Origin: a bacterium
Lineage (GTDB): Bacteria; UBA8248
Length of the DNA stretch: 64,000 nt
Assembly: GCA_965200245.1 (NCBI GenBank)
Contig: CBDATS010000002.1
Location: 256,001-320,000 of the forward strand
Direction of reading: 5' to 3'
Shown: positions 3,868 through 49,692 of the stretch, in pieces
Layout: each line of letters opens with the position of its first letter
How positions within the stretch are numbered: position 1 is the stretch's first letter
Made by a program: the position numbers and the translations under genes
Notes under the pieces: model-generated
Databases searched by the model: none
Told to the model about the DNA's origin: nothing
The model's input: the letters and a program-made list of their open reading frames with translations, nothing else

Positions 3868-5406
3868 CTAACACCCGTAGGCCTTGCCCTCTTGGGGGGC
3901 GAGCTGCTTCCAGGCCATCGCAAGTTCGACCAGAATCCGCACACCAACGCCCGTGCCGCCCTCGGGGCGGTAGGCTTCGGCCTTCGCGGTATGGGAGGGC
4001 CCCGCGATGTCCAGGTGCACCCAGGGTGTCTCGTCGACGAAATGCTGCAGGAACGCCGCGGCGGTGTTCGCTCCGCCCCAACGGCCACTCGATATATTGC
4101 ACATATCGGCTATCTTGCCCTTCATCGCCTCGCTGTATTCCGGAAACAGCGGCATGTGCCAGACGCGGTCGCCCGTTCGCTCTCCCAGGTCCCGCACGCG
4201 TCCCAGCAACTCATCATGCGTCCCGTACATACCCGTCACCTTCTGGCCGAGTGCCACCATGCACGCGCCCGTCAAGGTGGCGAGATCGATCATGCACTGG
4301 GGCTTGTATTTCTCGCGCGTGTAGTGGAGTGCGTCGGCCAGGACGAGCCTGCCCTCGGCATCGGTGTTGTGGATTTCCACCGTCGTTCCCTTCATCGAAC
4401 GCACGATGTCGCCAGGTCTCGTGGCGTCGCCGTCCACCATGTTCTCGACAAGACCTGCGACACCAACGACTGGCGTGCGGGGCTTTGCGCGCGCGATTGC
4501 GAGCATCGCACCCAGTACGGCGGCGGCCCCGCTCATGTCGGTCGTCATTTGCTCAAGGCCGCCGCTCGGCTTGATGGATATGCCGCCGGTATCGAACGTC
4601 ACCCCTTTACCGACCAAGGCAATGGGTTTCGTACGTACGTTCCGGGGATTGTATTCCAGAATCACCATGCGCGAAGGCGCGCTGCTGCCCCGGCCTACGG
4701 AGAGAAGCGCGCCCATCTTCTGTCGCTCCATCCGCTTCTCGTCCAACACGCGGCACCGCAGGCCCTCGCGCTGTGCCATGGCGCGCGCCATATCGGCCAG
4801 CACAGGCGGACGCTTCTCGTTGCTGGGCGTGTTGATGAGGTCGCGCGCGTAATTCGTCCCGTCGCAAAGAGCCCGCCCGAAGCGCACGCCGCTTCGCATG
4901 GCACTCAGATTCCTGTTCGGCCCCCCGCAGAGAACGGCGCTCGTCACTTCGCCCCTGTCCTCCTCGGCACCTGTCTTGTACCTGTCCATCCGGTAGAGAC
5001 CGAGTCCCACACCTTCCACGACGGCCTGTGCCGCCCCGCGCGCGTCGAGTTCCCTGTCCACGAGAGAAGAGGCCGAGACGGCGATGCTTTTCAGACTTTC
5101 CGAGCGGGCGCGTTTCGCCGCCATCGCGGACGCGCGGCGAACAGACTCAGGCGACGCCTCATCGCCCATTCCTGCGAGAATCGCGAACCCGGGCCCGTCT
5201 CCTTCGGGCATGGGCAAGACGGAGACCTGCCCTTCCTTGCCCTCGAACACCTTACGATCACGCAAGGAAGCCAGCGCGCTGCCCAGAACATCTTCGAGTT
5301 GCTCGTCTTTCTCGTCTTTCCTCATAAGGCGAACCAGGGCGTCCTTCCCCTGGTCGAACCCTGCACCGCCCGCAACGGAGAACCGCATGACCATCGCCTC
5401 ATCCAA
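3868..5406 (-). CDS. pepA: Leucyl aminopeptidase (M17)
   Basis: LVGKGVTFDTGG, NTDAEGRLVLAD, DLATLTGA, WVHLDIAG. Confidence 0.95.
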   Translation of the reverse strand: MDEAMVMRFSVAGGAGFDQGKDALVRLMRKDEKDEQLEDVLGSALASLRDRKVFEGKEGQVSVLPMPEGDGPGFAILAGMGDEASPESVRRASAMAAKRARSESLKSIAVSASSLVDRELDARGAAQAVVEGVGLGLYRMDRYKTGAEEDRGEVTSAVLCGGPNRNLSAMRSGVRFGRALCDGTNYARDLINTPSNEKRPPVLADMARAMAQREGLRCRVLDEKRMERQKMGALLSVGRGSSAPSRMVILEYNPRNVRTKPIALVGKGVTFDTGGISIKPSGGLEQMTTDMSGAAAVLGAMLAIARAKPRTPVVGVAGLVENMVDGDATRPGDIVRSMKGTTVEIHNTDAEGRLVLADALHYTREKYKPQCMIDLATLTGACMVALGQKVTGMYGTHDELLGRVRDLGERTGDRVWHMPLFPEYSEAMKGKIADMCNISSGRWGGANTAAAFLQHFVDETPWVHLDIAGPSHTAKAEAYRPEGGTGVGVRILVELAMAWKQLAPQEGKAYGC

Positions 5407-5514
5407 AAACGCAAAACATGAAAGTGAAAGGGCTCCAGTCTAACCCAGAGCGGCAGGCTCGGCTATGCGAACCGGACTCACCCGGCTTTTTTCCCGCGCG
5501 AATGAGCACACCGA

Positions 5515-5544
5515 TTGCCTAATCCCTCCCCCCGCCCCTAGAAT
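5515..5544 (+). promoter_or_regulatory. Possible sigma70 promoter for the cupin gene
   Basis: TTGCCT-18 nt-TAGAAT upstream of 5638. Confidence 0.35.
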
Positions 5545-5637
5545 GATCCCACATCGTTCGCAAAAAAACGGGCGGGCCGTACCCGTCGAGGTTTCCCGCT
5601 CTCAAATGGTTATTTTCACTCACACCTGGGAGACGCC

Positions 5638-6075
5638 ATGAGTTTCTACAACTGGGACATGCTGCCCCTGAGCCACGATCGCCCCGGCGTCGCGCACAGA
5701 AGGATTTTCGGCGACAACATCCAGATGCAGCACCTGATCACCGAGCCCGGCGGGACGCCCTCCAAACTGCACAGCCATCCCGATCACGAGGAGTTCTTCT
5801 ACATCCAAGCGGGCGAGTGGGAGTTCACGCTCGAAGACGAGGTACGGCGCGTGGGACCCGGGGACGTAGTGCACGTCCGGGCGGGCGCGATGCATACGTT
5901 GAAACTCGTGAGCGATGAGCCGGGAATGGCGCTCGAGGTGTTCTACCCGATGTGGAACCCCGAACTCGCGGGGAGCATGAAGGATTTCACGATAGACGCC
6001 ATCAAGGGCCGCATGGAGTTCGCGGAGGAACCGGACGAAATGAACCGGGGCCGCCCGCCCGGACGAACGGAATGA
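5638..6075 (+). CDS. Cupin domain protein
   Basis: HSHPDHEEFFYI...GDVVHVRAGAMH cupin motifs. Confidence 0.85.
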   Translation: MSFYNWDMLPLSHDRPGVAHRRIFGDNIQMQHLITEPGGTPSKLHSHPDHEEFFYIQAGEWEFTLEDEVRRVGPGDVVHVRAGAMHTLKLVSDEPGMALEVFYPMWNPELAGSMKDFTIDAIKGRMEFAEEPDEMNRGRPPGRTE

Positions 6076-6145
6076 TGGAGAGAAACCAGGGGCGGCAAGG
6101 TTTTTTGCCGCGGGTGAATTTGCCGGAATTTTCCCCGGTGAACAC

Positions 6146-6185
6146 AAACAGACAGGCGGTGCCTCCCGACACCGCCTGTCTGTTT
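6146..6185. terminator. Bidirectional intrinsic terminator
   Basis: Perfect 16-bp inverted repeat AAACAGACAGGCGGTG / CACCGCCTGTCTGTTT, 8-nt loop, between convergent genes. Confidence 0.85.
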
Positions 6186-6231
6186 TCTGATTCCCCTTGA
6201 TGTTCCGTCTCAGGTAACACCAAGGGTTTGC

Positions 6232-6327
6232 TTACGGCTTCTTGAGAACCCTCTTTCGGGAGCGAGGCGTCTTCATGACCCTCAGGAGAGATGTTTCAAG
6301 GGCGGTTACTATCAAGTTTCTTGCCAT
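6232..6327 (-). CDS. Small basic peptide, 31 aa (MARNLIVTALETSLLRVMKTPRSRKRVLKKP)
   Basis: GAGGAG RBS 7 nt before ATG, consensus promoter upstream, terminator downstream; below the ORF-track size cutoff. Confidence 0.6.
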   Translation of the reverse strand: MARNLIVTALETSLLRVMKTPRSRKRVLKKP

Positions 6328-6368
6328 GACAGCCCTCCTCTTACGACTTTCTAACCCGTACCCAACGT

Positions 6369-6397
6369 AATATATCGAAAGGCAGTATCCGTGTCAA
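6369..6397 (-). promoter_or_regulatory. sigma70-type promoter for the 31-aa ORF
   Basis: TTGACA (6397-6392), 17-nt spacer, TATATT (6374-6369) on the minus strand. Confidence 0.7.
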
Positions 6398-6413
6398 GTA
6401 TTTGGGGGGGGTC

Positions 6414-6591
6414 TACATACTTAATTCCACAAGTCCTATTCCCTGAATTCTGGCAAAACGGCTACTTCGGCCGCCGGTTTCCCGGGAAATCGGGGAACAT
6501 GCGGACGGGCTTCCGGGAGGAGCCTGTTCCCCAACAGAAAAACGAAACAGGATATCAAACCATACTCGTTACTCCAGGACAGGAGACCCAA
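6414..6591 (+). promoter_or_regulatory. Conserved non-coding 5' element of NHLP precursor locus 1
   Basis: Clearly homologous to 48604-48852 (shared CCCTGAATTCTGG, CGGCCGCCGGTTTCCCGGGA, GGACGGGYTTCCGGGAGG, AGCCTGTTCC, AGAAAAACG, AGGAGACC). Confidence 0.75.
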
Positions 6592-6855
6592 GTGAAATCT
6601 CTTTCCGGGATGCGCGAGCACCTGATCGGGAAGGCAGGCGACAGTGAGGAGTTCCGTGCCCGTCTTATCTCCGAACCGAGGGCCGTGGTATCCGGGGAGT
6701 TCGGAATCGCGGTGCCGGAGACTTTCAACCTGCATGTGATGGAAGACGACGCCGAGAACAGCTATCTCGTCCTTCCGCCTTCGGCCCGGCTCACTGAGGA
6801 AGAACTGGAATCCGTTCACGGTAGCTATGGTTTCGAAGATCCCGGCAGGTGGTAG
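6592..6855 (+). CDS. NHLP-leader (nitrile hydratase-like) RiPP precursor 1; core approximately SYGFEDPGRW
   Basis: KAxxxEEFRARL..P, YLVLPP, LTEEELESVHG leader motifs; GTG start after AGGAG. Confidence 0.85.
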   Translation: MKSLSGMREHLIGKAGDSEEFRARLISEPRAVVSGEFGIAVPETFNLHVMEDDAENSYLVLPPSARLTEEELESVHGSYGFEDPGRW

Positions 6856-6856
6856 T

Positions 6857-6937
6857 ATGCCACTCGCTTCTCAGCGGCTGGAAAGCACCCGCGGCAGCTA
6901 TGGTTGGCAGCTATGGTTTCAACGATGGTCATATTAG
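6857..6937 (+). other. Mini-ORF / partial precursor copy MPLASQRLESTRG-SYGWQLWFQRWSY
   Basis: ATG 1 nt after the precursor-1 stop; LESTRGSYG aligns to LESVHGSYG; contains the 13-bp tandem duplication GGCAGCTATGGTT. Confidence 0.55.
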
Positions 6938-7141
6938 AACATAAAGGAAATCACAGAGGAGGGGGTTTTCTCGTAGATGGAGATGACGGACGAGGGGCAG
7001 CTGGCGATGCTGGTCTAACAGGTGCTTCATTGTGTCTTTTTCTGTCTATGTTTTCAGGAGAAATCAGAGACAACGAGGCTTTTTGCCGCAGGTGGATTTC
7101 CCGGGATTTTCTCCGGCGAACACAAAAAAACAGGGATTTGA

Positions 7142-7495
7142 TCAAGCAAAATTTGTTTCACCTTTGAAACTTGTACGAAGTTTAAGTGTCACCGGTTCAC
7201 TTTCTCTATGAATATTCTTGGCCGTGACCTCTACCGCATATTCAGTATCCGGTTTCAAGTTCACAAAACTGCATTCAGTGATGGGTGTTTCAACTCCAAC
7301 GAGCCAATCAACCGCACCCACCTCTTTTATACGAATAATGTACGTAATTGGCGGAGTCCACTGCACTTCTATCCCATTTGATATTTTTGGGATATCTTTT
7401 ATTTTGGTCAACTTTATGTGGAAAGTTTTTGTCTGTGAATTCCATGAAACGGGAGGCTGATTCTGCTTTACGGTTGACCAGGGATTCTCATTCAT
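7142..7495 (-). CDS. Fibronectin type III domain protein
   Basis: VQWTPP...Y.I...NLKPDTEYAVEVTAKN...ESEP FN3 signature; AT-rich. Confidence 0.75.
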   Translation of the reverse strand: MNENPWSTVKQNQPPVSWNSQTKTFHIKLTKIKDIPKISNGIEVQWTPPITYIIRIKEVGAVDWLVGVETPITECSFVNLKPDTEYAVEVTAKNIHRESEPVTLKLRTSFKGETNFA

Positions 7496-7969
7496 TTTCT
7501 AACCCTGCCCCTCTTCCCTTCCAAGACTTTTCCACTGATAAACGGAACTCTCATCTGGCTGACTCGTGAACGCACCCAATAAACCTTCAATTGCAGCAAT
7601 ACGGCTTCCGAGGCTCATGCTTGTGTCTGCCATTCGTTCCCCTGTGCGCTTTATCTAGTTTTGAACCTCTCGAATATCGGTTTTCAATTCCCCCGTCCGA
7701 GTATGAATATCGGTTTTCAATTCTCTTATTTGGATATAAAGAAAAGCTGCAAGGGCTATAAGAGCACCTCCGAGAGTTATGAAAATACCTATGAGAGAAA
7801 GTATCTCGTTAAACTTCATATTTCTCTCCCCCGATTTATTTAGTCATTTGATGTAGGCAATATAGTGATAGGGATGGGGCGAAAGCAACCACTGAGGAGT
7901 TAAAGATAGTAGTTTTTGGTAAAATAACCGAGCAGTGTTTTGCGGGAGTTGGTATATAAATCCCAAAAC

Positions 7970-8177
7970 ATGTCTACCGAGGTCCACGGGGAGAGAAAGA
8001 CCCAAAGATGTTATCGAGTGTGCCGTTCGTGTTGCCCAGAGAGCAACAGGTGAAGTAGTGGCAACTCAAACGGAAGGCCAAGCAAATGCCTGCAAGATCG
8101 GCCACATATAAACGAGAAATCTCACCCCAGAACACAGAAAAGAGATCACGCAAAACGTCGCAGCGGTGTGGTGGGAA
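7970..8177 (+). pseudogene. Degraded small mobile-element-associated basic protein (GPxGEKRPxDV...ATGE...LTPExRxEI type)
   Basis: RGPRGEK / RPKDVIECAVRVAQRATGE / NLTPEHRKEI fragments split by a frameshift and a TAA. Confidence 0.4.
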
Positions 8178-8290
8178 ACTATTTTAGCCTCCCCAATGTC
8201 ATTAAATTTCAAGTCCTTACATTTCAACACATTACCTGAAAATATCATGCCGGAAGATCACCACCTCTCCCGACTCGTCCCATTGCGCAG

Positions 8291-9400
8291 CTAGGTCTCG
8301 ATGACAGCGGCGACAACGCCTCCGCCCACCGGCCCCTGGTGGAACACGAGGCCCGCAGAGACGTAGACCGCCGGGTCCTGCAGCACCGAGGCGATGACGG
8401 CGTTCGCAACCGCGCGCACGGGCCGCGTGCCCAGAACCGAATCCGTCAAGAGCGTGACCCGCTTGCCCAGGAGCCTGCCGTCCCAGGGCGCGCCCGCCTT
8501 TGCGAAGGCGTGCACCACCCTGCTCAGATCCTCCTGGCCTGGCAGAGCATCGAAGGCGAGACCCGCGTTCCTGAGCGCCTGCCTTACGGCGTCGGCGTCG
8601 ATCAGGTTTTGCATCACCGCACGGCCAATCCTGTAGCGACTCACGGATTGTGAGGAATTCGCCAGAACGACGACTTCAGAGCGCATGAGTTCCACACCCG
8701 CCGAGCAGGAGATCATCTCCGAGTACAAATCGCCTCGGCTGCAAACGTCGGATATCTCGAACGACTCGCGGGCAATTTCCCCGATGCCCACCGCCGCGCC
8801 CAAGGCCGAGCAACCGTTGGAGAGGCTCATCGATCGTGTGGTGTCCGTGCTGACCACTTTCTTGCCGCGCGAGGCCGCGTCGTTGATGCGATCAGACGTC
8901 AAAAGGGGGCACTTCACCTGCACGTAGCCTACATCGTCAAGCGAGTCTACGCCCGCCTTGTCGAGCGCCTCCGCCGCCGCCTCGGCCACGAGGTCCACCT
9001 GGGCCATCGTGCCCAGTTCCTCGGGCAAAAGTTCACGGGTGAAGGCAACTCCCATGGAGAGGCGCTTCTCTCCGGGACTTTCTGCGTCGCCCACATCGGT
9101 CCTGGAAAAAGCCACCGCGTGGGGACTCATCACCCCCTCGCATCCTCCCGACATCACCATCGCACACATGCCCTGCACCTCGGAACGTGTGAACCCCAGT
9201 TTCTCCATCATATAGTCCTCGAAGGAGTGAAGTGCGTAGGGCCTCGAATAGTCGTTCACTCGCCCGTTGCCCTCCGTCTTGGCGATAATGGCCTGAATGT
9301 CTGCCGCCCGGATGAGGCCTCTCTCCACCGCTTCCGCGAGCCCCGAGACGTCCTCGGGTCCCGACATCTGAAACTTCACCACCTGGGTATCGAACACCAT
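8291..9400 (-). CDS. Ring-opening amidohydrolase, cyanuric acid hydrolase (AtzD)/barbiturase family
   Basis: KTEGNG..NDYSR, MSGGCEG..SPH, QVKCPLLT, SAGVE, VS.....HQGP.GGG. Confidence 0.9.
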   Translation of the reverse strand: MVFDTQVVKFQMSGPEDVSGLAEAVERGLIRAADIQAIIAKTEGNGRVNDYSRPYALHSFEDYMMEKLGFTRSEVQGMCAMVMSGGCEGVMSPHAVAFSRTDVGDAESPGEKRLSMGVAFTRELLPEELGTMAQVDLVAEAAAEALDKAGVDSLDDVGYVQVKCPLLTSDRINDAASRGKKVVSTDTTRSMSLSNGCSALGAAVGIGEIARESFEISDVCSRGDLYSEMISCSAGVELMRSEVVVLANSSQSVSRYRIGRAVMQNLIDADAVRQALRNAGLAFDALPGQEDLSRVVHAFAKAGAPWDGRLLGKRVTLLTDSVLGTRPVRAVANAVIASVLQDPAVYVSAGLVFHQGPVGGGVVAAVIET

Positions 9401-47007: not shown

Positions 47008-47835
47008 ATGTCAAATAAAACAGGTTTCATCGCCATTTTGCTGACCGGAGCCACCATCTTCTCCAGCGTTTTCCTGCTGACATCCTCTTACAGTCAGAAA
47101 GAGTCTCCCGCGACAGTCATGCTCTCCTCCCAGGAAACAAGACAGAAAGGGGAACCCGAGTCCACACTCGTGGCGCAAAACCTAGACAAAAGCCAAATCG
47201 AGAAAATCATCAGAGAATACCTCATCAACAATCCCGAGGTACTCGAAGAAGCCATAAGAGCCCTGCAGGCCAGGCGAGAAGCAAGGAGACAGGCCGCGGC
47301 CCACGCCTCGATTCAGAAAAACAGGAAACAAATCTATGAAGACCCCGAAGATCCCGTAGGCGGCAACCCCAACGGGGACGTCACGATTGTGGAGTTTTTC
47401 GATTACAGATGCGGTTACTGCAAACGAGTGGCCCCGCTCGTGGAGGAAGTGCTCGCGAAAGACAGGAATATCCGTATCGTCTACAAGGAATTGCCCGTAC
47501 TGGGCCCGAACTCCGTATTGGCTTCCCGAGCGGCACTCGCCTCGCGCAAGCAGGGAAAATACATCGCCTTTCACAAAGCCCTCATCAAGGCCAGGATATC
47601 TTATGACGAAGCAAGCATCATGAGGGTCGCCGCCAACCTGGGTATCGACACAGTCCGCCTGAAAGAAGACATGGCGTCCCCCCGCATCCAGGCCCAACTC
47701 GCCAGGAATCGCGCCCTAGCGCGCTCCCTGAGCATACGAGGCACACCCGCCTTTATTGTCGGGGAGCAACTCTTCCCGGGCGCGCTCACCTCGGCACAAC
47801 TCGCCGCCATGATTCAACAAGCGAGAAGGAAATAG
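47008..47835 (+). CDS. DsbA family thiol-disulfide oxidoreductase
   Basis: Signal peptide, EFFDYRCGYCK, GTPAF. Confidence 0.93.
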   Translation: MSNKTGFIAILLTGATIFSSVFLLTSSYSQKESPATVMLSSQETRQKGEPESTLVAQNLDKSQIEKIIREYLINNPEVLEEAIRALQARREARRQAAAHASIQKNRKQIYEDPEDPVGGNPNGDVTIVEFFDYRCGYCKRVAPLVEEVLAKDRNIRIVYKELPVLGPNSVLASRAALASRKQGKYIAFHKALIKARISYDEASIMRVAANLGIDTVRLKEDMASPRIQAQLARNRALARSLSIRGTPAFIVGEQLFPGALTSAQLAAMIQQARRK

Positions 47836-47899
47836 GGAATTCGGAGAAATAAAAACCGAACGAAGAAAAACCCGGGAAGAGCTATTTGAAGAACTCGTC

Positions 47900-48382
47900 A
47901 TGAAGGAAATATCCGATGCCTTCGCAAAGAATGAATGGGCTGATTTGGATAAGAATGAAGAACTTCATCGGTCTTTAGACTATCTTGAGTCGACAGGATT
48001 GCGACCTGACAGAAGAAAAGACGATATGGAAGAGCTTGATATGGATCTGGGTCACCTTTGTTCACTAGGATTGCAACCTTACAGGAAGTGCGACGACGAG
48101 GAAGAACTTCTTGTTTCTTCGGATGATGATTTTACGGATATCAAGATATGGACTGCCGAGGATCAGGAATGGATTGATGACCCGTGGGCCGCAAGTGAAA
48201 AGTGCAATTTCAGCAAAGAAAGCCTCAGGTTTCCGAATGACAGTATGTTTATTCATGTTATGGAACGATATGTAAAGACATGGGATGAAATCATAGAAAG
48301 ACTTAGACAGTATCCAGGGAATGAAACCGGAGATGCCCTGACCTATTATCCTCCGGGGCATCGAATAGACAAGGAATCATAA
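47900..48382 (+). CDS. Hypothetical acidic protein (AT-rich, possibly a fragment)
   Basis: 160-aa open frame with lower GC; no recognised motif. Confidence 0.45.
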   Translation: MKEISDAFAKNEWADLDKNEELHRSLDYLESTGLRPDRRKDDMEELDMDLGHLCSLGLQPYRKCDDEEELLVSSDDDFTDIKIWTAEDQEWIDDPWAASEKCNFSKESLRFPNDSMFIHVMERYVKTWDEIIERLRQYPGNETGDALTYYPPGHRIDKES

Positions 48383-48603
48383 AGCAAAACTGATTTGGCT
48401 TTTATTCATTCTTGGTTCATCCAAAACCATCTCATGGTGTTTATCTGCAAACTCAAAGATGGCTTCTTGCGGGTCTTTGTTCTCGGCGATTTCCTTCCGG
48501 TGGTCTTCCAGGTCATTGAGCAGGACATATGTGATTCGTTTCATATCAGGCATTTGATTCGTTCTCCTATGTGTATAAATATGATTGCTGCTATTTCGGG
48601 AAT

Positions 48604-48852
48604 TACATACTTGATTTCACAAGTCTGAATCCCTGAATTCTGGAAAAACGGATCCTCCGGCCGCCGGTTTCCCGGGAGAGGAGGGGACATATGGACGGGT
48701 TTCCGGGAGGAAGCCTGTTCCTCACGAGAAAAACGTCAAAAATTTCTTGCGTTTCCACCGGAATGTCCCGTATCCTGTTCATGATGCAAAAGAAAAACGA
48801 AAGCAGCGTGGGTGTCAACCCATACCCATTTCTCTCGGGAAAGGAGACCAGG
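48604..48852 (+). promoter_or_regulatory. Conserved non-coding 5' element of NHLP precursor locus 2
   Basis: Homologous to 6414-6591, with an extra segment between two AGAAAAACG copies. Confidence 0.75.
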
Positions 48853-49122
48853 ATGAAATCTGCTACAGAGATGCGGCAGCAGCTGAGTGAGAAGGCAGGC
48901 ACGGACGAGGCGTTCCGGCAGAAACTGCTCGACGACCCGCGCGGCACGATCGAAAGCGAGTTCGATGTCGCCCTGCCGGCCGGTTTTTCGGTTTCGGTGC
49001 TCGAGGACAGTGCGGATCATGCGCATCTGGTGATCCCGCCCTCGTCGCTGATCCCCGACAGCGACCTCGAGAGCGTCAGCGGCGGGATAGACCGGTGGGG
49101 TAGCCGCGACTACGGCCCCTGA
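48853..49122 (+). CDS. NHLP-leader RiPP precursor 2; core IDRWGSRDYGP
   Basis: KAGTDEAFRQKLLDDPR, HLVIPP, DLESVSGG double-glycine motif; AAGGAG RBS. Confidence 0.88.
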   Translation: MKSATEMRQQLSEKAGTDEAFRQKLLDDPRGTIESEFDVALPAGFSVSVLEDSADHAHLVIPPSSLIPDSDLESVSGGIDRWGSRDYGP

Positions 49123-49162
49123 CCCTGGCGGGGGGATCTCGCGGGCGTCAGCGGCGGCGCCT

Positions 49163-49393
49163 GAGAAAGCAGAGGCCAGCGAGGAGTTCCGCGCCCGCCT
49201 GCTCGCTGACCCGAAGGCCGTGGTATCCGAGGAGGTCGGAATCGCTCTTCCGGATGATTGTAACCTCCATGTCGTGTCGGATGACGCGGAAAACGGCTAT
49301 CTGGTACTCCCGCCTGCGCCCCGACTCACCGAGGAACAGCTGGAAGATGCCAGCGGCGGTGTATACGATCCGTTTGGCGGTCAAATGCCTTGA
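49163..49393 (+). pseudogene. NHLP-leader precursor 3 lacking a start codon; core VYDPFGGQMP
   Basis: EKAEASEEFRARLLADPK...YLVLPPAPRLTEEQLEDASGG; no ATG/GTG/TTG in frame back to TAG 49088. Confidence 0.8.
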
Positions 49394-49445
49394 CGATCAC
49401 GGCTGGTATCAATAAGAGAAGTCATATACGAAAGGGCCCACTTTC

Positions 49446-49517
49446 GAGTTGCTGTCAGATCCGGTGTATGGACTGAATGGAAGAAGGCGGCGCATACACT
49501 GGTTCTGACAGTAATTC
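49446..49517. mobile_element. 72-bp MITE-like element with IS256-type ends
   Basis: 25-bp imperfect inverted repeats GAGTTGCTGTCAGATCCGGTGTATG / CATACACTGGTTCTGACAGTAATTC matching the IS end at 56692. Confidence 0.7.
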
Positions 49518-49692
49518 CGCCCGTGACGCAAAACGATACACCCGGAAACGCAAAAATCGAGATATTCGTACTTGCGGATTCAAGTAGATAATTCCCGCTA
49601 TTCTTTATACTTTGAGGCCGGTGGAGGATGTGGGAATTTGAGGAGTCGCTATTTCTAGAATGAAGGGATTGATTCCCAAAAAAATAAAACAA

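Follow-up and report, generated by a model that had tools for sequence, protein, structure and literature searches.

NHLP-leader peptide precursor genes carried by small mobile cassettes, and an ABBA-fold enzyme family as candidate maturase in trans

The genes described here lie in a 64,000-nucleotide stretch of bacterial DNA (the window). In an assembly of 3.68 Mb on 15 contigs (95.8% complete, 8.1% contamination), this stretch is C2:256001-320000; coordinates with a contig number refer to this assembly and those without one to the window. The window holds two intact genes for precursors of ribosomally made peptides with post-translational modifications (RiPPs) with an NHLP leader (P1 and P2), one 5'-truncated gene of the same kind (P3) and one frameshifted C-terminal fragment of a further precursor. 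P1, P2 and P3 scored 64.8, 61.6 and 58.7 bits against TIGR03793, all above the curated cut-off of 50.9, and all three also matched the Pfam family NHase_alpha. An earlier note on this DNA had reported three NHLP-leader precursors at two loci. All three belong to the family, and P1 and P2 are intact; P3, however, has no start codon, and the fragment is a fourth unit that was not described there. The conservation of leaders reported in that note was also borne out, with 46/71 identical residues between P1 and P3 (the note had counted 43/64). P1 and P2 share 33/76 residues (43%).

P1 (6592-6855, + strand) occupies the last 87 codons of an open frame, starting at GTG 6592 with GGAG upstream. Its leader spans 6592-6825, and its core would be YGFEDPGRW or SYGFEDPGRW, depending on the assumed cleavage after GG/GS. 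At the DNA level this leader is 97% identical to the one at C15:101349-101616, a copy 1 kb away from a gene for an ABBA-fold enzyme (C15:99063-100316) that is discussed below. The fragment follows at 6860-6937 (+), where the sequence reads as the C-terminus of a precursor (..LESTRGSYG..). Its frame is shifted by a 13-bp tandem duplication (6893-6905, 6906-6918), without which the core would be SYGFNDGHIRT. P2 (48853-49122, +) has a type-B leader, starts with ATG and ends with TGA, and has the core IDRWGSRDYGP; a copy with the unrelated core APWYDNVH has exactly the same 231-nt leader. P3 (49130-49393, +) has an NHLP leader and the core VYDPFGGQMP. No ATG, GTG or TTG was found in it before 49220, and its TIGR03793 match covers model positions 11-77 only. 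A recombination joint stands in place of the first ~10 leader codons, and a remnant (..VSGGA-stop) in another frame lies directly upstream. P3 is a mosaic as judged by its BLAST spans, with a leader like that of the YYNRIFD copies and a core and 3' flank like those of the QYDPFGGRIP copy. Since its start and upstream region were lost in recombination, translation of P3 into a full precursor is improbable. When a start codon and a complete leader are taken to define a translatable gene, P1 and P2 qualify and P3 does not. P3 and the fragment at 6860-6937 are broken by-products of recombination.

The window copies are part of a genome-wide family, as had been proposed. TIGR03793 matched the genome at 39 places, 34 of them over the cut-off, and a hidden Markov model (HMM) built from the window copies found 35 copies above 60 bits, encoding 29 distinct peptides. 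Congeners had 0-7 NHLP matches each (18 same-genus genomes). The starts of contigs C2 (C2:1058-5836) and C15 (C15:3-4781) are reverse-complement copies of each other, each with a cytochrome P450 gene, two NHLP genes and their neighbours, and may be a genuine inverted duplication or an overlap left by the assembly. Some NHLP copies are therefore counted twice, and the counts of distinct genes allow for this. A 265-aa frame at C4:787076-787870 (-), which gave two weak matches to the HMM (31.9 bits), probably belongs to a genuine protein of the nitrile hydratase alpha type rather than to a precursor.

Two main leader types were distinguished, type A (including P1 and P3) and type B (including P2). 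Counted from K2, the leader is 77 residues long, and in all 21 full-length copies its last two residues are GG, GA or GS, after which the peptide may be cleaved. The cores are 3-15 aa long, apart from one 45-residue read-through, and contain many Tyr, Trp, His and Phe residues. Trp or Tyr is present in 21/21 distinct full-length cores and Trp in 16/21; an aromatic residue stands at core position 1 or 2 in 15/21, and Cys occurs in only one. The ratio of nonsynonymous to synonymous changes (dN/dS, Nei-Gojobori) over the 231-nt leaders came to 0.35 among 105 type-A pairs and to 0.15 among 10 type-B pairs; these pairs are not independent. The mean nucleotide identity of the cores was 0.41, and that of shuffled cores 0.41 +/- 0.12. 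Identical 231-nt leaders were found in five pairs of copies, with unrelated cores in four; the fifth pair is P2 and a near-duplicate at the start of C4, which differ in one core residue. Because dN/dS is 0.15-0.35 and identical leaders are joined to unrelated cores, the leaders are not decaying neutrally, a fate that had been allowed for at the outset, but are under purifying selection. Homology between copies ends within a few bases of the GG codons (BLAST), and this sharp boundary between leader and core points to recombination or gene conversion among copies rather than to point mutation.

Both loci begin with the same non-coding 5' element, as had been noticed before (6414-6521 and 48604-48711, 84% identical). 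It recurs ~30 times in the genome and is present in 0/22 congeners. The first 28 bp of the element are a terminal inverted repeat (TIR) with an internal palindrome, ACTT.A.T.CACAAGT, and recur in inverted orientation downstream of precursor genes. The 28-mer was found at 34 sites at <=7 mismatches, and at none in shuffled sequence. Searching with the TIR pattern at <=3 mismatches gave 29 sites in the genome (0 with a reversed-pattern control) and matches in 2/50 other genomes of the phylum. Paired inverted TIRs bound eight cassettes of 663-999 bp, one of which is window 48598-49596 and holds P2 and P3. The cassettes consist of the 28-bp TIRs, a ~250-nt conserved upstream region, one precursor gene (two at locus 2) and a 3' hairpin. 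They are too short for a transposase and contain only NHLP open reading frames (ORFs).

In the complete cassette of locus 2, the left TIR (48598-48625, +) has 2 mismatches to the consensus, where 0 matches are expected by chance. It is followed by the conserved 5' untranslated region (48626-48852, +) with a predicted stem-loop, by P2 and P3, by a 3' part with a long hairpin (49394-49568, +; fold z = -3.9, 0/200 shuffles fold as well) and by the right TIR, an inverted copy of the left one (49569-49596, -; 1 mismatch to the degenerate pattern). The cassette is flanked by the target-site duplications GCTATTTC (48590-48597) and GCTATTCT (49597-49604), which pair with each other at 6/8 positions. 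The hairpin loop (49445-49495) is a dispersed ~50-nt repeat that is also found away from NHLP cassettes, at C8:133045, C4:706371, C5:733779, C5:817630 and C4:1055335. The cassette of locus 1 has a left TIR (6408-6435, +) with 5 mismatches to the consensus, which is also the left edge of an insertion island. Its 5' untranslated part (6436-6591, +) has a ~70-nt internal deletion relative to the sister copies and an RBS-like (ribosome-binding-site-like) GGAG before the start.

Immediately outside the eight pairs of TIRs, the 8-bp flanks match at 52/64 positions, and 7/8 pairs match at >=6/8. Offset controls gave a mean of 2.19/8, and 0/160 reached 6. A 705-bp cassette at C4:1426664-1427368 is exactly absent in 5/22 congeners, which have its target AAAAATTC once (three-way alignment). 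This exact empty site is that of a sister cassette on C4; for the cassettes of the window, absence in congeners was seen for the larger islands described below. The same peptide is also encoded by cassettes at separate sites, C4:570771 and C8:198493, and each of these has a duplication of its own. Together, the TIRs, the 8-bp duplications and the exact empty site lead us to read the cassettes as non-autonomous transposable elements, in agreement with the earlier note's suggestion that the precursors spread as a cassette with their 5' element. They resemble miniature inverted-repeat transposable elements (MITEs) and mobile insertion cassettes (MICs), are ~660-1000 bp long, carry variable cargo and have transposed in the past, and the cassette family has multiplied in this lineage alone. 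One 729-bp element in a congener (G034, C1:1637057-1637785; L145 1501-2229) has the same TIRs and an 8-bp duplication matching at 7/8 positions; its cargo is two AT-rich small ORFs (~59 and ~115 aa) and no NHLP gene. No transposase partner was found in the 50 other genomes of the phylum, nor in a scan of metagenome contigs. The genes at solo TIR-like sites encode a CoA-transferase, YchF, an HMGL-like protein, a DNA methylase and an Mrr nuclease, with no transposase partner.

The 28-bp box could instead be primarily a transcription-factor operator or promoter, in which case its inverted downstream copies would be regulatory and not transposon ends. Its internal palindrome and its place at the head of the conserved upstream region fit such a role. 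So does a near-identical 28-mer on an unrelated metagenome contig of 39% GC (L132 5347-5374, -), where a 1700-aa ORF follows ~140 nt downstream; this site may have a regulatory function or be the solitary end of an element. It is the seventh of seven metagenome loci that matched the degenerate TIR pattern; the other six are chance matches within coding regions, and the exact pattern had no match in metagenome contigs. Against an operator stand the 8-bp direct duplications immediately outside the paired boxes, the exact empty site with a single target copy and the congener that carries the same ends around different cargo. The ends could, moreover, have a regulatory role and still be those of a mobile element, and we consider it very improbable that the box is primarily an operator.

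The RBS-like GGAG is kept in 14/14 aligned copies. Scanning both loci for intrinsic terminators gave none inside the cassettes, no sigma-54 box was seen in the cassettes by eye, and Rfam at gathering thresholds gave 0 matches over the whole window. RNAalifold of eight distinct upstream regions gave double-sided changes at 3/56 pairs and non-canonical pairs in 34/448 cells, with a single-sequence fold z of -3.4. Such evidence does not suffice to call the upstream region a structured RNA. In two metatranscriptome runs (contigs only), one contig lies over 6650-6768 and continues into paralogue sequence, and other contigs cover neighbouring non-cassette DNA. Nothing P1-specific was found in the two runs, and transcription is neither shown nor excluded by them. 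Over the leader, DNA contigs show a higher word depth, which suits a sequence present in several copies but is not a copy number.

The system had been called enzyme-less. This is correct within the window, where no maturase-like gene was found, but not for the genome, which encodes an NHLP-adjacent ABBA-fold family, a P450 and an exporter set. The neighbours of all NHLP copies in the genome were clustered. One recurrent family emerged, with proteins of ~365 aa. Five of its ORFs are complete (C8:325398-326591, C15:99063-100316, C2:5567-6745, C5:366844-368013 and C2:7332-8687); a contig end truncates one further member, two more are broken copies and another is a short remnant. Every member adjoins NHLP genes or fragments, and seven NHLP copies have one within 2 kb; the precursor at C15:101327-101644 is adjacent to such an enzyme gene. 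The members scanned matched nothing in Pfam or NCBIfam (including Trp_DMAT PF11991 and PTase_Orf2 PF11468), and the named relatives are hypothetical proteins only. An AlphaFold2 model (53-row alignment; pLDDT 92, pTM 0.90) has five alpha-alpha-beta-beta repeats. When the model was compared with the PDB using Foldseek, 76 matches passed E <= 0.001. Those listed (ranks up to 50), with E starting at 2e-6 and TM values of 0.4-0.52, are all ABBA aromatic prenyltransferases, and the best are mostly indole prenyltransferases; they include IptA, PriB, AmbP1, DMATS, NphB/Orf2, CloQ, CymD and TleC. Language-model similarity to prenyltransferase clusters was 0.88-0.89, below the 0.9 level, and these clusters serve as leads only. 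The ~365-aa proteins are predicted from the modelled fold to be aromatic prenyltransferases, and prenylation by them, which the earlier note had not considered, is our leading hypothesis and the best candidate for the chemistry.

The family is large: at E <= 0.001 it comprises 3765 cluster representatives, and thresholds of 1e-10 and 1e-30 leave 2743 and 616, respectively. Its association with NHLP precursors extends to other metagenome-assembled genomes (MAGs). We examined 35 family loci from MAGs titled Nitrospinota, SAR202/Dehalococcoidia, Alpha- and Gammaproteobacteria, Binatia, Spirochaetia and others, and in 32 an NHLP gene lies within 4 kb, often directly upstream and with up to 11-12 in tandem. 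The cores adjacent to the enzyme in these MAGs contain Trp in 68/70 cases; the Trp is within the last three residues in 43 and C-terminal in 32. A complex of the enzyme C15:99063-100316 (residues 68-418) with P1 was also predicted, with alignments for both partners, and gave ipSAE values of 0.04 and 0.12 against a mark of 0.32; the prediction lends no support and is not evidence either way.

An NHLP-type exporter set is encoded outside the window at C8:219.6-225.6 kb. It comprises TIGR03796 (902.2 bits against a cut-off of 853.3, full length), TIGR03797 (683.9 against 709.4, just under the cut-off) and a partial TIGR03794, whose match covers model positions 1-112 of 421. The C39 domain is that of C8:222528-224672. 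The whole-genome NHLP HMM and C39 exporter searches that had been advised thus yielded both further copies and an exporter set. A 209-aa ORF at C2:6745-7374 (L061), beside two ABBA-fold genes and the P450, matches the last ~60 positions of TIGR03797/03796 and looks like the remnant of a second exporter. With an NHLP exporter and NHLP-adjacent enzymes encoded elsewhere in the genome, maturation of the window precursors in trans would be feasible. Other maturation families were also searched for. YcaO (PF02624), Trp_halogenase (PF04820) and SPASM (PF13186) gave no match in the 95.8% complete genome. Polytheonamide-type proteusins have a radical SAM epimerase or C-methyltransferases beside the precursor; no radical SAM family was found among the recurrent NHLP neighbours, where not all single neighbours were annotated and SPASM was the only dedicated search. 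LanC-like (PF05147) gave no match here and none in control genomes either, which makes that search uninformative; that 20/21 cores lack Cys argues against the lanthipeptide family.

The P450 at C2:3836-5128 lies between NHLP genes and is transcribed divergently from the NLYY precursor and its enzyme. This position suggests another chemistry, oxidative cross-linking of aromatic residues as in biarylitides or atropopeptides, carried out by the P450 or by an unrecognised enzyme, with the ABBA-fold family acting as a scaffold or in some other transfer. The abundance of Tyr, Trp, His and Phe in the cores suits cross-linking, as does the lack of any sequence motif shared between the ABBA-fold family and characterised prenyltransferases. 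The P450 is, however, the only NHLP-adjacent one; its second appearance is the contig-end duplicate, and the only other P450 of the genome is not beside an NHLP gene. The truncated NHLP copy beside it is a cassette insertion, so their adjacency may be accidental, and the constant neighbour in 32/35 loci elsewhere is an ABBA-fold gene. Aromatic cross-linking, one of the two chemistries suggested earlier, would thus be possible only via this one P450, and we regard it as distinctly unlikely to be the main route. The other suggested chemistry was halogenation, in which Trp or Tyr of the cores would be brominated or chlorinated as in the srp proteusins. The type-A leaders do contain LTEEQL, which 10.1101/2023.06.09.544420 quotes as the srp YcaO recognition sequence, and DNA of the window occurs in runs labelled sponge metagenome. 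The genome, however, has neither a Trp-halogenase (PF04820) nor a YcaO (PF02624) match, and its cores, 20/21 without Cys, are not of the LCCCW type given for srp in the same source. Halogenation is not supported, and we give it hardly any weight.

Taking these observations together, we lean towards the explanation that the NHLP genes of the window are cargo of small non-autonomous cassettes, and that P1 and P2 are matured in trans by ABBA-fold enzymes. Recombination or gene conversion among the copies would keep leaders and upstream regions alike, with the cores differing completely, and the intact orphan precursors would be transcribed from the cassette's own upstream region. ABBA-fold paralogues encoded beside other NHLP genes would then modify Trp or Tyr, guided by the leader; we infer that they may recognise P1 because its leader is 97% identical to the enzyme-neighbouring copy. 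For some peptides a P450 might act next. Finally, the peptides would be cleaved after GG, GA or GS and exported by the single NHLP-type C39-peptidase ATP-binding cassette (ABC) exporter set.

Several observations weigh against this explanation. On the side of the cassettes, that of P1 is damaged, with the ~70-nt upstream deletion and no right end, and two of the four window units are broken. Four type-B copies match the window only at 48738-49086 (BLAST), a span that covers the leader and part of the upstream region, and lack a TIR, so transposition alone does not account for every copy. No transposase with these TIRs at solo ends was found in the assembly, and no sigma-70-type promoter was recognised in the cassettes in a scan of both loci. 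On the side of the enzymes, there is no member of the family within 2 kb of 28/35 NHLP copies and no relative in the window (best tblastn E = 0.3). No type-B copy in the genome adjoins an enzyme, and the type-B leader of P2 is only 43% identical to type A. Trp is absent from 5/21 full-length cores here and also from the core of P3, which is outside the 21. A profile search against PDB sequences showed no similarity to any prenyltransferase, and the fold similarity is moderate (TM ~0.5). With a resemblance in fold only and none in sequence, the chemistry is a prediction from fold alone.

The main rival explanation is that the cassettes multiplied as selfish mobile DNA, that their precursors are unmatured passengers and that the window copies are decaying orphans. 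It draws on the signs of decay, namely P3 without a start codon, the frameshift in 6860-6937, other copies with truncated or read-through C-termini (ADCMIIPIMAHN, ILPLRPDSPMNS and C4:1517709), two broken enzyme genes and one enzyme remnant, and the exporter remnant at C2:6745-7374. The restriction of the expansion to one lineage also fits. Mere hitch-hiking is, however, at odds with the dN/dS of 0.15-0.35 in the leaders, the start codon directly before a full-length leader in 29/35 copies, the conserved GGAG in 14/14 aligned copies and the retention of Trp or Tyr in 21/21 full-length cores. The genome has also kept a complete exporter set, together with five enzyme genes that are complete. We therefore judge hitch-hiking to be unlikely, and favour functional cargo matured in trans.

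A more far-reaching version of the favoured explanation can be put forward as a tentative possibility. The symbiont may use a transposable cassette as a vehicle for RiPP precursors, as a self-amplifying library of short prenylated Trp/Tyr peptides, with the TIRs doubling as a shared regulatory site and the ABBA-fold family forming a large undescribed class of peptide prenyltransferases. With each jump or recombination, a peptide gene complete with leader tag and promoter would reach a new site. Gene conversion would hold the leader and upstream region matched to a few enzymes and one exporter, and the cores would diverge freely.

Parts of this arrangement resemble known systems. Prochlorosins are made from Nif11-leader precursors matured by one promiscuous enzyme, ProcM. 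The family described here is similar in having many dispersed precursors with conserved long leaders and hypervariable cores, and a few enzymes that would serve them in trans. It differs in that the leader is NHLP and not Nif11, the candidate enzyme has the ABBA fold, 20/21 cores are free of Cys and the precursors lie in TIR-bounded mobile cassettes, a setting that we did not find described for prochlorosins in the literature searched. MITEs and MICs are TIR-bounded elements without a transposase, some of them with passenger genes. The cassettes are like them in being short, with TIRs, a fixed-length target duplication, no transposase, many copies and a cargo that varies between genomes, and unlike them in carrying a RiPP precursor gene together with the upstream region of that gene. 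The enzyme family shares with ABBA prenyltransferases a predicted ten-strand barrel of five alpha-alpha-beta-beta repeats with conserved Arg, Lys, Tyr, Glu and Asp on the strands. Its conserved strand residues are E48, R50, D59, R199, R260, K302, H330, K332, K343 and Y345. In contrast to those enzymes, it shows no detectable sequence similarity to them, and its gene neighbourhood points to a leader-bearing peptide as substrate and not a free indole. Cyanobactin prenyltransferases are also ABBA enzymes; they are not among the Foldseek matches listed. Our literature search, with most subscription journals and supplements outside its scope, found no description of RiPP precursor genes as cargo of TIR-bounded cassettes and none of an NHLP-associated ABBA-fold family.

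Three published systems come close in other respects. The srp proteusin precursors have the leader motif LTEEQL and LCCCW cores, and their genes are highly expressed in sponges (10.1101/2023.06.09.544420). They are like the present family in their NHLP leaders with LTEEQL, their Trp-centred cores and their spread over phyla of sponge-associated bacteria (10.1101/2023.06.09.544420). Unlike srp, with its conserved LCCCW, YcaO and brominase (10.1101/2023.06.09.544420), the cores here are hypervariable and neither enzyme family was found in the genome. PalX of Paenibacillus alvei is an NHLP-type precursor with an 8-aa aromatic core, in which Trp is prenylated by PalQ in a reaction enhanced by the leader (PMC10853753). 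The NHLP leader and short aromatic core are shared with the precursors described here, but PalQ belongs to the isoprenoid-synthase (ComQ-like) superfamily and not to the ABBA enzymes, and PalX/PalQ form a single three-gene cluster with a histidine kinase and not a multi-copy library (PMC10853753). In the MppE/MppC system, a peptide prenyltransferase that geranylates Trp requires a long, structured Nif11-type leader, which is compared with NHLP in that source (PMC12715784). As described there, its substrate is a lanthipeptide with a Nif11 leader from a single cluster, which sets it apart from the present family (PMC12715784).

Both loci of the window lie in lineage-specific insertion islands. 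The island of locus 1 (6404-8203) consists of the truncated cassette and low-GC DNA with an FN3-domain ORF, and the insertion starts at the left end of the cassette (6408). In two congeners (G014 and G008), the flanks 5000-6403 and 8204-9400 are only 21-22 nt apart. The island of locus 2 (47836-49677) consists of low-GC orphan ORFs and the one complete cassette. Its flanking genes, for a DsbA-like and a PNPOx-like protein, adjoin in 17/22 congeners (0-9 nt overlap) and are <=~200 nt apart in the other five, which identifies 47836-49677 as an insertion. The GC content is 41-46% at 7000-8200 and 41-45% at 47800-48600, compared with 55-58% in the large contigs, which matches the AT-rich DNA seen earlier beside both loci. 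The flanking genes encode a cupin, an AtzD/TrzD-type amidohydrolase, the DsbA-like protein, the PNPOx-like protein and LeuRS. The AtzD/TrzD ring-opening amidohydrolase gene (PF09663, 409 bits; 8291-9400, -) stands immediately to the right of the locus-1 island, and the FN3 ORF (PF00041, 39 bits; 7142-7495, -) is in its low-GC part. Several repeats were also found around this island. Positions 7400-7678 have a 90% identical counterpart at C15:100442-100719, with an NHLP gene on one side and an ABBA-fold enzyme gene on the other. Locus 1 is bracketed by the two copies of a ~75-bp direct repeat, 6078-6157 outside the insertion and 7056-7135 within it; over the core they are ~85% identical, and BLAST found no others in the genome. 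At the right edge, 7981-8178 is a dispersed repeat with five more copies (71-84%) on C4 and C5.

RiPP mining usually discards precursors that have no enzyme nearby. Here such orphans are traceable to transposable cassettes and recombination, and this origin explains how a peptide library can be dispersed and diversified and still stay compatible with distant enzymes. It also adds a case of functional cargo on miniature bacterial transposable elements. The large unannotated enzyme family, which is almost always found beside NHLP precursors with Trp cores, points to undescribed lipidated peptides in uncultivated, largely sponge-associated bacteria. These putative peptides would be candidate signals or antimicrobials, and the enzymes may be useful catalysts for peptide lipidation.

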